DNA from: Escherichia coli | Lineage (GTDB): Bacteria; Pseudomonadota; Gammaproteobacteria; Enterobacterales; Enterobacteriaceae | Assembly (NCBI RefSeq): GCF_048403405.1 | Contig: NZ_CP183129.1 | Strand: one strand, 5' to 3' | DNA length: 64,000 bases | In this document: piece after piece, positions 23,773 through 29,036 of the stretch | Layout: the number at the start of each line of letters is the position of its first letter | Numbering within the stretch: position 1 is the first letter of the stretch | Notes under the pieces: model-generated | Told to the model about the DNA's origin: nothing | Seen by the model: only the letters and a program-made list of their open reading frames with translations | The model's database searches: none | Position numbers and translations under genes: made by a program

Positions 23773-23862
23773 AATTTTAGATTGATTACGCCACCGATGA
23801 ATGGCTCAACGGGGTAGGGGATTTTGTGTTTTTTTGCCGGGCGAATACCCGGCATCAAGAAG

Positions 23863-24294
23863 TTACATCCGCATGGAAACGGCCAGACGGTTAAAACAAT
23901 TCATCAGCCCGATGGCAAACGTTAAGTCGCTGATCTCTGCTGCGCTGAAATGCTCAAGCAAAGGCTGATAAACCTCGTCTTCCGCATGGGTTCTGGCAAT
24001 TTCGGTTACCGATTCCGCCCATGCCAGCGCCGCCCGCTCGCGTTCATCAAAATGATGGCTTACGCGCCAACCTGCCAGGGCGTCCAGTTTGTGCTGTGGC
24101 ACGCCGGATTTGCGCAATGCTTTGCTGTGCATCTCCAGACAAAATGCGCAGCCGTTGATTTGCGAGACGCGCAAATAAACTAACTCCATCAACGTGGTAT
24201 CCAGCGTGCTATTTTCCAGTGCCGTTTTGGCCTGCACTAGTGCGTTATACACTGCCGGGCTAAGTTCGTAGTAAGGCTGACGTAATGTAGTCAT
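23863..24294 (-). CDS. AhpD-like / carboxymuconolactone decarboxylase family protein
   Basis: 143-aa ORF with aggaga SD; contains CxxCxxxH (GCAFCLEMH), the AhpD-type redox motif. Confidence 0.8.
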   Translation of the reverse strand: MTTLRQPYYELSPAVYNALVQAKTALENSTLDTTLMELVYLRVSQINGCAFCLEMHSKALRKSGVPQHKLDALAGWRVSHHFDERERAALAWAESVTEIARTHAEDEVYQPLLEHFSAAEISDLTFAIGLMNCFNRLAVSMRM

Positions 24295-24381
24295 ACAGTT
24301 TCTCCTCTTATTAACGCCCGCAATGTAGCACTATAATGGACTGCTAAAGAGAGCCATAAATTACCTAAAAAAGCAGACCAT

Positions 24382-25716
24382 ATGCCGCGCTATCAGGATA
24401 TCGCCCGTCAGTTAAAAACGGCTATTGAGCAAGGGGAACTGAAACCCGGCGCAAGGCTGCCTTCAAGTCGTACCTGGTCGCAGGAGCTGGGGGTGTCTCG
24501 ATCCACTGTCGAAAATGCGTATGCTGAGCTGGTGGCGCAAGGATGGCTGATCAGGCGGGGACAGGCTGGCACATTTGTCAGTGAGCGGATATATCCGCAA
24601 CAATCTACTGTACAAGTTGTAGCTTTTGCCGGTGAAAGTCAGCAACCGTTGCCATTTCAAATGGGATTACCCGCACTCGATCTCTTTCCGCGAGAGCTGT
24701 GGGCGCGGGTGATGGGGCGTCGCCTTCGTACCCAGACGCGCTTTGATTTGGCGTTAGGCGATGTCTGCGGTGAGGTGGCGTTGCGCGAGGCAATAGTTGA
24801 TTACTTACGCGTTTCACGTGGGATTGATTGTCAGCCAGAGCAGGTCTTTATCACTCACGGTTATGCGGCCTCAATAGCTTTAATTCTGCACGCGCTGGCG
24901 AAACCGGGAAACGGGATGTGGATAGAAGATCCCGGCTTTCCACTGATTCGCCCGATTGTCACTCGCCATGATGTGGAAATTTTGCCTGTGCCGGTTGATG
25001 ACAATGGACTGGATATCACAAGCGGAATACAAAATTATCCTGATGCGCGTTTTGCCCTGATAACACCAGCACACCAAAGTCCGCTGGGTGTGGCGCTCTC
25101 TTTAGCGCGCAGGCATCAGATACTGGAATGGGCAGATCGTAGTCAGGCATGGATTATTGAAGATGATTATGACAGTGAGTTTCGCTATCACGGTAAGCCG
25201 TTACCGGCGTTAAAAAGTCTCGACGCACCGCAGCGGGTAATTTATGCCGGAACATTCAGCAAAGCGCTATTTCCTGCATTGCGCTGTGCGTGGCTGGTGT
25301 TGCCGGTGAAGCAAATTGCACAATTCCGCCACCAGGCGTCACTGGCTCCATGTGCGGTACCTGTTCTATGGCAGAACACACTGGCAGACTTTCTTCGCGA
25401 GGGGCATTTCTGGCGGCATCTGAAGAAAATGCGTCAGCATTATGCTCAACGTCGGCAATGGATTGAGCAAGCGTTGACGCAGCAAGGATTTCAGGTTGTG
25501 CCGCAGAAAGGTGGTATCCAGATGGTGATCAGAATGATAGGCGATGATATTGCCCATGCGCGTAAAGCCAATGCTGCAGGCCTTGCGGTGCAGGCACTTA
25601 GCGACTGGCGTATCCGTTCAAGTGGGGAAGGTGGATTACTGCTCTCGTTTACTAATATCGTTAACGAAGGTATGGCGCGACAGGTAGCACAACAATTACG
25701 TAAAGCCTTAAGCTAA
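24382..25716 (+). CDS. MocR/GabR-type transcriptional regulator (GntR HTH fused to PLP-dependent aminotransferase-like domain)
   Basis: 444-aa ORF; N-terminal GntR-family wHTH (..SSRTWSQELGVSRSTVENAYAELVAQGW..) and large C-terminal aminotransferase-fold domain (..IYAGTFSKALFPALR.. with the expected Lys); divergent from the AhpD-like gene. Confidence 0.82.
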   Translation: MPRYQDIARQLKTAIEQGELKPGARLPSSRTWSQELGVSRSTVENAYAELVAQGWLIRRGQAGTFVSERIYPQQSTVQVVAFAGESQQPLPFQMGLPALDLFPRELWARVMGRRLRTQTRFDLALGDVCGEVALREAIVDYLRVSRGIDCQPEQVFITHGYAASIALILHALAKPGNGMWIEDPGFPLIRPIVTRHDVEILPVPVDDNGLDITSGIQNYPDARFALITPAHQSPLGVALSLARRHQILEWADRSQAWIIEDDYDSEFRYHGKPLPALKSLDAPQRVIYAGTFSKALFPALRCAWLVLPVKQIAQFRHQASLAPCAVPVLWQNTLADFLREGHFWRHLKKMRQHYAQRRQWIEQALTQQGFQVVPQKGGIQMVIRMIGDDIAHARKANAAGLAVQALSDWRIRSSGEGGLLLSFTNIVNEGMARQVAQQLRKALS

Positions 25717-25743
25717 AAAACCCCGAAGCCAGGCTTCGGGGTT
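25715..25743. terminator. Bidirectional terminator between the MocR-type gene and ygaM
   Basis: aaaaaa-ccccgaagcc-a-ggcttcgggg-tt hairpin between convergent genes. Confidence 0.6.
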
Positions 25744-25772: not shown

Positions 25773-26102
25773 CTACGATTTGCGCATGCTTAACAGTGCG
25801 CCGATAAAAATACCTACCGCAGCTGCTGTACCCACGCTACACCAGGGTCTTTCACGAACAAAAGAATCCGCGCAGCCAACGGCATCGCGCGCGGCTTGCT
25901 GGACGCGAGTACGACCATGCATTCGCGCCCTGGTTTCTTTCAGTAGAGCCTGCGCTTTACTGCGTGCGGCTTCAGCTTCCCCTTTAGCGTCGCTGCCCCA
26001 GGACTTCAATACAGATTCGAGGCTATCAGCTAATTGATTGACATCATTCTGGATATCCTGCACGCCATCATCAACGTCGTTGCGGTTCGGTCGGTTAAAC
26101 AT
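25773..26102 (-). CDS. ygaM: DUF883/ElaB-family membrane-anchored protein
   Basis: ORF track 25773-26114; ATG at 26102 has a gggga SD; C-terminal TM anchor (..VGTAAAVGIFIGALLSMRKS). Confidence 0.85.
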   Translation of the reverse strand: MFNRPNRNDVDDGVQDIQNDVNQLADSLESVLKSWGSDAKGEAEAARSKAQALLKETRARMHGRTRVQQAARDAVGCADSFVRERPWCSVGTAAAVGIFIGALLSMRKS

Positions 26103-26253
26103 ATGATCCCCCATTAGAATTCGATGTAATTTTCAGTGTAGACCATAATTTTCTTAACTGAGGTTCATCGCGGCTTTATGGACTTTTCTGAAAGCGTTGT
26201 GAATGCGCAATCAGGTAAGGTAGGCCCGCGGTTGATAATAACGAGGATCAAAT

Positions 26254-26598
26254 ATGTATTTACGACCAGACGAGGTGGCGCGCGTACTTGAAAAAGTCGG
26301 TTTTACTGTCGATGTGGTAACCCAGAAGGCTTATGGTTACCGCCGTGGGGAAAACTATGTCTATGTTAATCGCGAAGCGCGAATGGGACGTACCGCCCTG
26401 GTGATTCATCCAACATTAAAAGAACGTAGTTCAACACTGGCTGAACCCGCTTCCGATATTAAAACTTGCGATCATTATCAACAATTTCCGCTCTATTTAG
26501 CAGGCGAGCGACACGAGCATTACGGTATCCCCCATGGCTTTAGTTCGCGTGTTGCGCTTGAACGTTATTTGAATGGTTTATTTGGCGAAGCCAGTTAA
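26254..26598 (+). CDS. ygaC: DUF2002 family protein
   Basis: 114-aa [25 protein letters not shown].. in the conserved position between ygaM and alaE. Confidence 0.85.
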
Positions 26599-26634
26599 AG
26601 ACGCGACTGGCGATGCCAGTCGCGAAAAGAAGGG

Positions 26635-27084
26635 TCAGGCTTTTACCTGCTGGTAACGGCTGACTTTAAACAGTCGGCGGCAATAATCGAGGAAGTAGCC
26701 ATAAACCGCCCCCATCAACATCGAAACAACGATGTTTGAACTGACCGCCGCCATAATCTGATGCCAGTCTGCGCCCACCACTAACAAGATCGCCACATAC
26801 ACCGGTGACTGGAACGTCACATAAGCCATGATATCCGCCAGATTTTTTATCCAGCCCGACGGGCTAACTTTGCGTGCTGCGCGCATAAACAGATCGCGGT
26901 ACATACCGTATGGCCATGCAATTAAGATGTTCACCGGAATCGCTACCAATCTGGAATAAAAAGACTGTTCGAAGCTCATTCCGGAGAGGAAAACTTCAAT
27001 ACACATGTTCACGACAGAACAGTAAACAACCATCGCGAACGTATCTGCAACTGCATGACGCAAGCGTGACTGCGGTGAGAACAT
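26635..27084 (-). CDS. alaE: L-alanine exporter AlaE
   Basis: ORF track 26635-27195; ATG at 27084 has an aaggag SD and gives a 149-aa membrane protein [21 protein letters not shown].. Confidence 0.88.
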
Positions 27085-27195
27085 GCTAATGCTCCTTAAT
27101 AAAAGCGTAATGGGATGTGAATGGAGATGAAAGCAGTGGATCTCATTGCCATCTGCATTTTCGCATAGCGTATATCGCTGGCTATGACTAATCAA

Positions 27196-27751
27196 TTAGT
27201 GAAAAATTTTTATTTAAACTGTTTTTGTAGATAAAATATTCCGTAACGGCGCGTTTTTTGTACATTGTGGATTTTTACATGCCGATATGGTTTATTTTAA
27301 ATTGAATCAATTAGATATGATCCTGCCTTTAATTACACTAATGAAAGTTTGGGGGTGAGATAACGCTATAAGCGTAGAGAATTCGGTGTATGTCGTGACC
27401 GGGTCATTTTCAGCATTTTTTATGCCAGAAAATGTACATTGACAGCAGAAAGCACCAGTGAGGGGTGTTTTCATTTATTCGGTTAAATTGCATTTTTATT
27501 CACTTTGGTTTTGTCAGGCTTGCGGAATTAGCGAGCAGAGAGCGCCGCTCTGTTCACCAATAACCGAAATTACTCATCAAAATGGCTAATATATAATCTT
27601 GAAATTATTCTGAGAGTTTCAGAAAATAACAGCTGAAATAATCTCGTGCAGGACTGTAAATAGATTAAATTTTGTGGAAATATAATAAGTGATCGCTTAC
27701 ACTACGCGACGAAATACTTTTTTGTTTTGGCGTTAAAAGGTTTTCTTTATT
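27196..27751 (+). promoter_or_regulatory. AT-rich stpA upstream regulatory region (divergent from alaE)
   Basis: 556-bp AT-rich non-coding stretch with many A/T tracts upstream of stpA; a silencing/curved-DNA regulatory region is expected for an H-NS paralogue. Confidence 0.45.
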
Positions 27752-28156
27752 ATGTCCGTAATGTTACAAAGTTTAAATAACATTCGCACTCTCCGTGCGA
27801 TGGCTCGCGAATTCTCCATTGACGTTCTTGAAGAAATGCTCGAAAAATTCAGGGTTGTCACTAAAGAAAGACGTGAAGAAGAAGAACAGCAGCAGCGTGA
27901 ACTGGCAGAGCGCCAGGAAAAAATTAGCACCTGGCTGGAGTTGATGAAAGCTGACGGAATTAACCCGGAAGAGTTATTGGGTAATAGCTCTGCTGCTGCA
28001 CCACGCGCTGGTAAAAAACGCCAGCCGCGTCCGGCGAAATATAAATTCACCGATGTTAACGGTGAAACTAAAACCTGGACCGGTCAGGGTCGTACACCGA
28101 AGCCAATCGCTCAGGCGCTGGCAGAAGGTAAATCTCTCGACGATTTCCTGATCTAA
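27752..28156 (+). CDS. stpA: H-NS paralogue StpA (DNA-binding nucleoid protein)
   Basis: 134-aa [36 protein letters not shown].. with C-terminal [12 protein letters not shown]-binding motif. Confidence 0.95.
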
Positions 28157-28202
28157 TTACTGAGGCCGGATGCCGCCGCTATGGCGCGTCCGGCGTCGCT
28201 TC

Positions 28203-28727
28203 TCAAGCTCGTTGGTTCCACGGCATCTTACCTAACAACCTTGCCATACCACAAAAACCGCTAATTCCTGCAAACAGTAACCCGGCACCAACAAAGCCGC
28301 TTAATAAGAAGAAACCGCTATTTACGGTATAACCTAGTATAACTCCGATTAATATTAAACCACCCGCAGCGATCTGCACCTGGCGCATTAACGGCAAGGG
28401 TTGAGATTTATTTACCGCTACTGGTAATCCTGCTTTTTTCCAGCCATCAATCCCATCTTCGAGTAAAAAGATTTCTGCGGGGGCGGCAATCGCTGCTAAT
28501 TTATCGGCGTTATTACTGGTGCGTTTACCTGCCTGGCAGTGGAATATAATTTGCTCGTGACGTAATTTAGCCGGAAGACCTGACTGTTCCAGCTCGGATA
28601 ATGGAGCCAGATCTGCTTCAGGAATATGCTCACGAAGATATTCATCAGCGTCACGAATATCGATTAACTTTGCGCCGCGTGCGATTAATTCTTGTGCATC
28701 ATGCGGCGAAATGGTTGTCAAAGCCAT
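28203..28727 (-). CDS. ygaP: Rhodanese-domain inner membrane sulfurtransferase
   Basis: 174-aa ORF with rhodanese active-site Cys (FHCQAGKRT) and C-terminal TM helices. Confidence 0.88.
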
Positions 28728-28736
28728 AGTGACTCC

Positions 28737-29036
28737 TTACGGACAATAGACATTTTTCAGGGTGGCGATAATGGCATTTACCGCCTCATTTTTAATGGAA
28801 TATAGAATGCGTTGGGCATCCCGTTGGCTGTCGATAAGCCCTTCGTCCCGCATACGAGCGAGATGCTGTGATGTCGCAGAGGCACTCAGTCCGGTAATGC
28901 GCGTCAGCTCTCCCGCACTGGTGCCGGGGGAACCGCTAAGCATGCACAGAATCAGCAACCGTTTAGGGTGGCTCATTGCTTTCAATAAGGCCGCTGCCTG
29001 TTCGGCACTGGCCTGTAATTGCGCGAGTTCAGTCAT
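28737..29036 (-). CDS. ygaV: ArsR/SmtB-family transcriptional regulator
   Basis: 99-aa wHTH ORF immediately upstream of ygaP. Confidence 0.88.
   Translation of the reverse strand: MTELAQLQASAEQAAALLKAMSHPKRLLILCMLSGSPGTSAGELTRITGLSASATSQHLARMRDEGLIDSQRDAQRILYSIKNEAVNAIIATLKNVYCP

Follow-up and report, generated by a model that had tools for sequence, protein, structure and literature searches.

The stpA-alaE (ygaW) region of Escherichia coli K-12 has reportedly been studied by Free and Dorman (1997), Sonden and Uhlin (1996), Ihara et al. (2017), Kroner et al. (2019), and Ziegler and Freddolino (2023). The stretch of DNA analysed here (64,000 nt of an E. coli chromosome, contig NZ_CP183129.1; hereafter the window) contains the identical locus, with the same gene order and gene boundaries; the spacer between the two genes is 668 bp long in K-12 and 667 bp long here, and the promoter-proximal sequences at both of its ends are nearly identical in the two strains. 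Unlike K-12, however, this strain carries a minority allele of the spacer, which departs from the K-12 sequence mainly in the unconserved middle.

The locus also resembles a group of AT-rich upstream regions under H-NS silencing and Lrp control that includes proU (URE/DRE), ilvIH, dadAX-ycgB, pap, and fim. Like these, it combines a long AT-rich upstream region, a promoter that is silenced by H-NS although usable by RNA polymerase alone, and Lrp binding to multiple sites with long-range bridging. Unlike in this group, two unrelated genes use one region at alaE<>stpA; the half next to alaE is formed by a conserved module of old origin, whereas the stpA half consists mostly of unconserved spacer, in which neither H-NS high-affinity motifs nor Lrp consensus sites are enriched.

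Binding of regulatory proteins at this locus is documented by several studies. The stpA<>alaE spacer is listed with genomic-SELEX sites for H-NS and for the RpoD holoenzyme (PMC3946193), and transcription of hfp and stpA is derepressed without H-NS, as found for stpA by RT-PCR in UPEC 536 hns (PMC2814080). The latter paper also cites Sonden and Uhlin for stpA derepression in the absence of H-NS, and earlier work for repression by H-NS and StpA of their own and each other's genes, including StpA autoregulation. According to a summary in PMC4668568, stpA transcription is Lrp-dependent in minimal medium and silenced by H-NS. The Lrp data that the earlier note, made from the sequence alone, had named as a check also exist: a double Lrp ChIP peak is located at stpA-alaE, removal of a second Lrp peak (in ygaP, >1 kb away) lowers Lrp-mediated activation of stpA more than 5-fold, and purified Lrp was seen by AFM to bridge stpA-alaE DNA, with leucine abolishing this bridging (PMC10127797).

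Identity, boundaries, and composition of the region

Positions 27085-27751 are the alaE<>stpA divergent intergenic region of the E. coli chromosome. The alaE coding sequence, encoding an L-alanine exporter of 149 aa, is located at 26635..27084 on the minus strand, and the stpA coding sequence, encoding an H-NS paralogue of 134 aa, is located at 27752..28156 on the plus strand; both assignments are supported by the list of open reading frames (ORFs) and by the RefSeq annotations of K-12 and of a genome with 100% identity, in agreement with the pair of divergent genes that the earlier note had named. The region matched 5,419 of 5,426 complete E. coli genomes, with a single copy in each, and is carried at 100% identity by strain TUM14771. 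No annotated feature was found between alaE and stpA in TUM14771 or K-12, and none lies beneath the match in the 30 genomes listed among the 5,419 matching E. coli genomes. We read 27085-27751, with a probability of about 85%, as upstream regulatory DNA common to the two divergent genes and not as a transcribed leader. The region is already known and ordinary; binding of Lrp and H-NS to it has been described before.

Translation of alaE is annotated to start from the ATG at 27084-27082, with a Shine-Dalgarno sequence, AAGGAG, at 27097-27092. In an alignment of 21 sequences (the window and 20 other species), this AAGGAG and ATG are nearly invariant, while the DNA upstream of them is variable and contains indels that are not multiples of three; the start is therefore placed at 27084, which gives a spacer of 667 bp. 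The length of 556 bp proposed in the earlier note is too short; its left edge, 27196, lies one base beyond the TTG that opens the longest possible ORF through alaE. We rejected this TTG (27195) as the alaE start, as it represents a longest-ORF artefact and the annotated protein begins at the ATG at 27084. The same TTG is the first half of the predicted alaE -35 hexamer, TTGATT (27195-27190), which shows how rules that extend a gene to its longest ORF can swallow a promoter.

The description of the region as long and AT-rich was borne out. Its GC content is 0.352 (0.340 for 27196-27751), as compared to 0.497 for the window, and ranks in the lowest 2-4% of equal-sized windows; it is also below the length-weighted mean of 0.411 for all 60 intergenic gaps in the window. 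At 667 bp, it is the second longest of these 60 gaps, for which the RefSeq gene table covering the whole window gives a median of 88.5 bp; the other divergent gaps in the window range from 87 to 559 bp. A GC content of 0.352 over 667 bp corresponds to the extended AT-rich DNA (hundreds of bp) by which H-NS/StpA-silenced regions are recognized. In 58 other Enterobacteriaceae species with a divergent alaE<>stpA pair, the spacer is always 475-789 bp long, with a GC content of 0.31-0.43.

Two further parts of the window presented features of their own. The lowest-GC DNA of the window is located at 38150-43050 (GC content of approximately 0.35 for the segment as a whole, falling to 0.28 near 39300-41000); this segment contains ypjCB, tRNA-Ile, a recombinase pseudogene, and a gene whose product has an alpha-amylase C-terminal domain, adjoins ssrA and ypjA, and looks like an island. 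At approximately 23860-25720, two genes absent from K-12 are located between ygaM and nrdH and encode proteins of the PLP-dependent aminotransferase family and of the carboxymuconolactone decarboxylase family; the alignment with K-12 breaks at window position 25715.

The alaE control module

A scan for AlaE in one genome per species yielded 80 loci, including 58 in other species with an adjacent divergent stpA and 22 in which no stpA was found beside alaE; 20 of these 22 loci had a full 3-kb flank and were used in the alignment of the alaE side. Across the 58 stpA-adjacent spacers, conservation is bipartite, with one conserved part next to alaE (27160-27320) and one next to stpA (27670-27751). 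The alaE-proximal part is the best-conserved part of the region, and its identity peaks at 85% around 27205. This part includes what we designate the alaE control module (27162..27310, minus strand), composed of a predicted core promoter and upstream AT-rich blocks, and conserved both in the 58 stpA-adjacent spacers and in the 20 species without stpA within 3 kb. Because it is conserved in these 20 species, the module belongs to alaE and predates the neighbourhood with stpA; about a third of the region thus belongs to alaE, a point overlooked by the earlier note.

The predicted core promoter consists of the conserved -35/-10 pair TTGATT (27195-27190) and TACGCT (27172-27167), on the minus strand and separated by 17 nt; in the -10 hexamer, the T, the A, and the final CT are invariant in all 21 sequences. 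Six blocks, read on the alaE strand, are common to the window and the 20 species without nearby stpA: TTGAT (27310-27306), AAAAT (27276-27272), CAAAAAA (27260-27254), GGAATATTTTATCTACAAAAA (27242-27222), TAAATAAAAATTTTTCACTAATTGAT (27216-27191), and CAGCGATATACGCTATGCG (27180-27162). The invariant positions fit a sigma-70 promoter and predict transcription of alaE from approximately 27160, with a 5' UTR of approximately 76 nt (27085..27160, minus strand). This predicted 5' UTR is poorly conserved except for the Shine-Dalgarno sequence, and its fold is unremarkable (z = -1.0).

Previous studies have shown that Lrp together with L-alanine or L-leucine positively regulates alaE (PMC6801825), and that addition of valine raises the alaE transcript more than 300-fold (PMC7066862). 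In minimal medium, the alaE promoter region presents two strong Lrp ChIP peaks and alaE is slightly repressed, while in the presence of leucine, isoleucine, and valine one Lrp peak is left and alaE is strongly activated (PMC10127797). The AT-rich blocks upstream of alaE lie approximately 30 bp apart and are compatible with predicted degenerate Lrp sites; they are likely candidates for the place where the Lrp complex forms. In the mechanism that we propose for this side of the region, a predicted weak sigma-70 alaE promoter is preceded by approximately 120 bp of conserved AT-rich blocks, on which Lrp would assemble, and leucine- or alanine-loaded Lrp turns alaE on.

The stpA promoter, its 5' UTR, and candidate hidden genes

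A transcription start site for stpA, associated with a perfect TATAAT, has been placed at K-12 position 2,798,556 by run-off transcription and RNA-seq (PMC10301672); its signal is absent in the wild type but is seen in a Δhns strain and with E-sigma70 alone in vitro. The same paper states that RegulonDB and the Thomason dataset hold an identical start site. Through an alignment of Escherichia sequences, this position corresponds to 27692 in the window, with the TATAAT at 27681-27686. Silencing by H-NS, as claimed by the earlier note, agrees both with the genomic-SELEX site in the spacer (PMC3946193) and with this pattern of a promoter that is silent in the wild type and active in Δhns (PMC10301672). 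We searched the supplements of PMC4782308, PMC4681348, and PMC11092163 for start sites and found none.

The published start site gives a stpA 5' UTR of 60 nt (27692..27751, plus strand), with a Shine-Dalgarno sequence AAGG at 27737-27740. The unusually long stpA leader suggested by the earlier note therefore fails, and with it the reading of the region as a cis-regulatory 5' leader acting as a riboswitch, attenuator, or RNA thermometer, which we regard as hardly credible. It is true that stpA expression increases with temperature (PMC2814080) and that a U-run (27716-27720) pairs with the Shine-Dalgarno region in the minimum-free-energy fold; however, this reading is contradicted by the mapped start site, the fold of the stpA UTR is unremarkable (z = -0.75), no consensus structure was found by RNAalifold in 58 orthologous stpA UTRs, and no Rfam family matched. 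A fourU-like thermometer in the stpA UTR was considered as a candidate and dropped because RNAalifold showed no structure there. Of the combination that the earlier note had set against its own interpretation, i.e., a single short leader together with no bound protein, the first half agrees with the one published start site, while the second is at odds with the observed binding of H-NS and Lrp.

When the 110 bp preceding stpA were aligned for 59 species, conservation was highest in TGG (27675-27677) and in the TA...T of 27698-27703, with variable sequence between them. These two elements delimit the stpA core promoter region (27675..27703, plus strand), which contains TGGAAA (27675-27680) and TACACT (27698-27703) separated by 17 nt. 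The pattern TGGnnn-N17-TAnnnT is exact in 47 of 60 Enterobacteriaceae sequences and always lies 46-51 nt from the ATG; it has the form of a -35/-10 signature and would predict a stpA start near 27709, as compared to the published 27692. The TATAAT at 27681-27686 sits in the spacer of the TGGAAA-N17-TACACT pair, and is found, among the sequences aligned, in Escherichia, in Salmonella, and in a few Citrobacter. Because most genera lack a -10-like sequence at this position, the downstream pair TGGnnn-N17-TAnnnT is probably the ancestral stpA promoter. This putative family-wide pair (TGGAAA-N17-TAnnnT), overlapping the E. coli TATAAT, would be the sole, and small, addition made here to a known locus.

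Other promoter candidates were set aside. A scan for consensus promoters and terminators returned counts no higher than those in shuffled sequences, and missed the TATAAT promoter in use, which has no -35 match. The promoters predicted by Shimada et al. (TTTACA-17-TTTAAT for stpA and GTGATA-17-TCTAAT for alaE) lie in unconserved sequence, and the one for alaE is not intact in this strain.

The earlier note had also suggested that short ORFs or sRNAs may be hidden in the region, and an unannotated small protein gene or small RNA would indeed find some footing in it, as several ORFs of 20-55 codons are present, a terminator-like hairpin is located at 27448-27472 (upstream of a 13-bp palindrome), and the minus strand of the middle region gave the fold energy z = -2.2. 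The predicted alaE 5' UTR also contains a 20-codon ORF (27158..27096, minus strand) that opens approximately 2 nt past the predicted alaE start site and stops within the Shine-Dalgarno sequence of alaE. Four Escherichia genomes (this E. coli strain, K-12, E. albertii, and lineage MOD1-EC7003) carry this ORF intact, but it is interrupted in three other Escherichia-lineage genomes, and its region is not conserved in other genera. Six ORFs of at least 20 codons are located between the promoters; in K-12, four of them contain a stop codon or have no start codon, and the remaining two are disrupted in E. albertii. The hairpin is compatible with chance and is already not conserved in E. albertii, folding of the two UTRs and of the middle region on either strand gave unremarkable energies (z from -0.75 to -2.2), and a Rfam scan over 26000-29000 (E up to 10) returned only chance-level matches, none of them at E < 3. 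As the tests for small ORFs, Rfam families, and conserved RNA structure were all negative, and as nothing is annotated under the match in the 30 genomes listed of 5,419, a hidden gene appears very improbable.

The 13-bp palindrome AGAGCGCCGCTCT (27539-27551) was examined as a candidate and rejected; a sequence of 667 bp would contain approximately 0.65 such palindromes by chance, and this one is specific to E. coli and not conserved in E. albertii. It lies within an E. coli-specific, GC-richer patch.

The middle spacer

Between the two conserved ends, the sequence at 27330-27665 shows low identity and many gaps and cannot be aligned across genera, and the same bipartite pattern is seen within Escherichia. 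We describe this part as a variable AT-rich spacer in the upstream region of stpA (about 27320..27665), whose sequence drifts while its length and composition are kept. The whole spacer of the window differs from that of K-12 at 31 positions (4.65%), as compared to 0.7-2.9% for the flanking genes; 22 of these 31 differences fall in 27290-27510, which makes this 220-bp segment (~10% divergence) a hot spot of within-species divergence. Judged from the neighbouring genes, ~10% is roughly the level that would be expected of unconstrained sites. The allele is rare in E. coli, as only 157 of 5,419 genomes carry it at an identity of at least 99%; K-12 is 95.4% identical.

The earlier note had described phased A/T tracts here as typical of H-NS/StpA-silenced, curvature-dependent promoters; in such a mechanism, helically phased tracts would bend the DNA and nucleate H-NS/StpA. 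Over the whole region, the periodogram of A/T tracts peaks at 10.8-10.9 bp, with p = 0.03-0.26 by tract definition when compared to dinucleotide-preserving shuffles, and the best sub-interval (27400-27751) reaches p = 0.002, uncorrected. A wedge model (Bolshoy-Trifonov and AA-wedge parameters) placed 21% of positions above the window's 95th percentile, as compared to 10.6 +/- 5% in shuffles (p = 0.02), although models of this kind assign high scores to AT-rich DNA in any case; the predicted curvature forms four patches (27185-27265, 27400-27440, ~27570, and 27645-27680). The weak periodicity (p = 0.03-0.13) and this modest excess over shuffles are what a curvature-dependent promoter would have in its favour. 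On the other hand, tract spacing is irregular (T-tract starts are 15, 32, 18, and 23 bp apart), and a phasing test on 58 spacers (57 orthologues and the window) gave a median p of 0.44, with p < 0.05 in the window alone. This indicates that phasing has not been kept by evolution, and helical phasing would be at most a weak local feature here (p ~0.04). The curvature prediction that the earlier note had named as a check gave a modest excess over shuffles, and nucleation by curvature is an unlikely mechanism for this promoter. Composition, and not curvature, is the feature that is kept, since the phased A-tracts are not conserved.

Consensus motifs likewise gave no foothold for specific sites. 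One match to the H-NS high-affinity motif (TCGATAAATT-like) was found at two or fewer mismatches, as compared to 2.1 +/- 1.5 in shuffles, and none at one or fewer; the Lrp SELEX consensus YAGHAWATTWTDCTR had two matches at three or fewer mismatches, as compared to 3.5 +/- 2.2 in shuffles. As matches to either consensus are no commoner than in shuffled sequence, the binding sites are not pinpointed by sequence.

The middle spacer diverges approximately as expected under neutrality and shows no conservation of A-tract phasing; any specific architectural role assigned to it is putative. The spacer (about 27320-27665) may even be passive, with the two end modules alone functional and with length and AT-richness maintained by mutational bias and by a lack of selection to delete; we consider this possible, although somewhat against the odds. 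Near-neutral divergence (22 differences in 220 bp relative to K-12), abundant indels across genera, the lack of conserved phasing, and the absence of Lrp or H-NS motif enrichment are consistent with a passive spacer, as is the finding that intergenic DNA in the window is AT-richer than genes in general (GC 0.41). However, in none of the 58 other species is the spacer shorter than 475 bp or its GC content higher than 0.43, as compared to a median gap of 88.5 bp in the window; in addition, H-NS is expected to cover the spacer by spreading once bound (PMC3946193), and the effects of Lrp at this locus reach over more than 1 kb (PMC10127797).

We infer instead that the spacer may serve as a platform for protein spreading, i.e., that H-NS/StpA filaments and Lrp oligomers would land on, and spread along, these ~350 bp of AT-rich DNA without sequence specificity. 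In the corresponding mechanism for stpA, the core promoter (27675-27703) is usable by RNA polymerase unaided and is silenced by H-NS and by StpA itself, and Lrp activates stpA in minimal medium, in part by bridging to its second site, which lies within ygaP on the downstream side of stpA. A joint reading, which we put forward with considerable doubt, would combine two overlapping, mutually exclusive sigma-70 promoters for stpA (the ancestral pair, with a start at ~27709, and a younger TATAAT promoter, with its start at 27692), of which one could be targeted by H-NS silencing and the other by Lrp activation, with a ~350-bp spacer whose length and AT-richness would be maintained by selection for protein spreading and not for sequence.

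The locus represents a textbook case of cross-regulation by H-NS of its paralogue, and is also a current model for Lrp-mediated DNA bridging; the map of conserved hexamers described here could guide the dissection of both the alaE and the stpA promoter.
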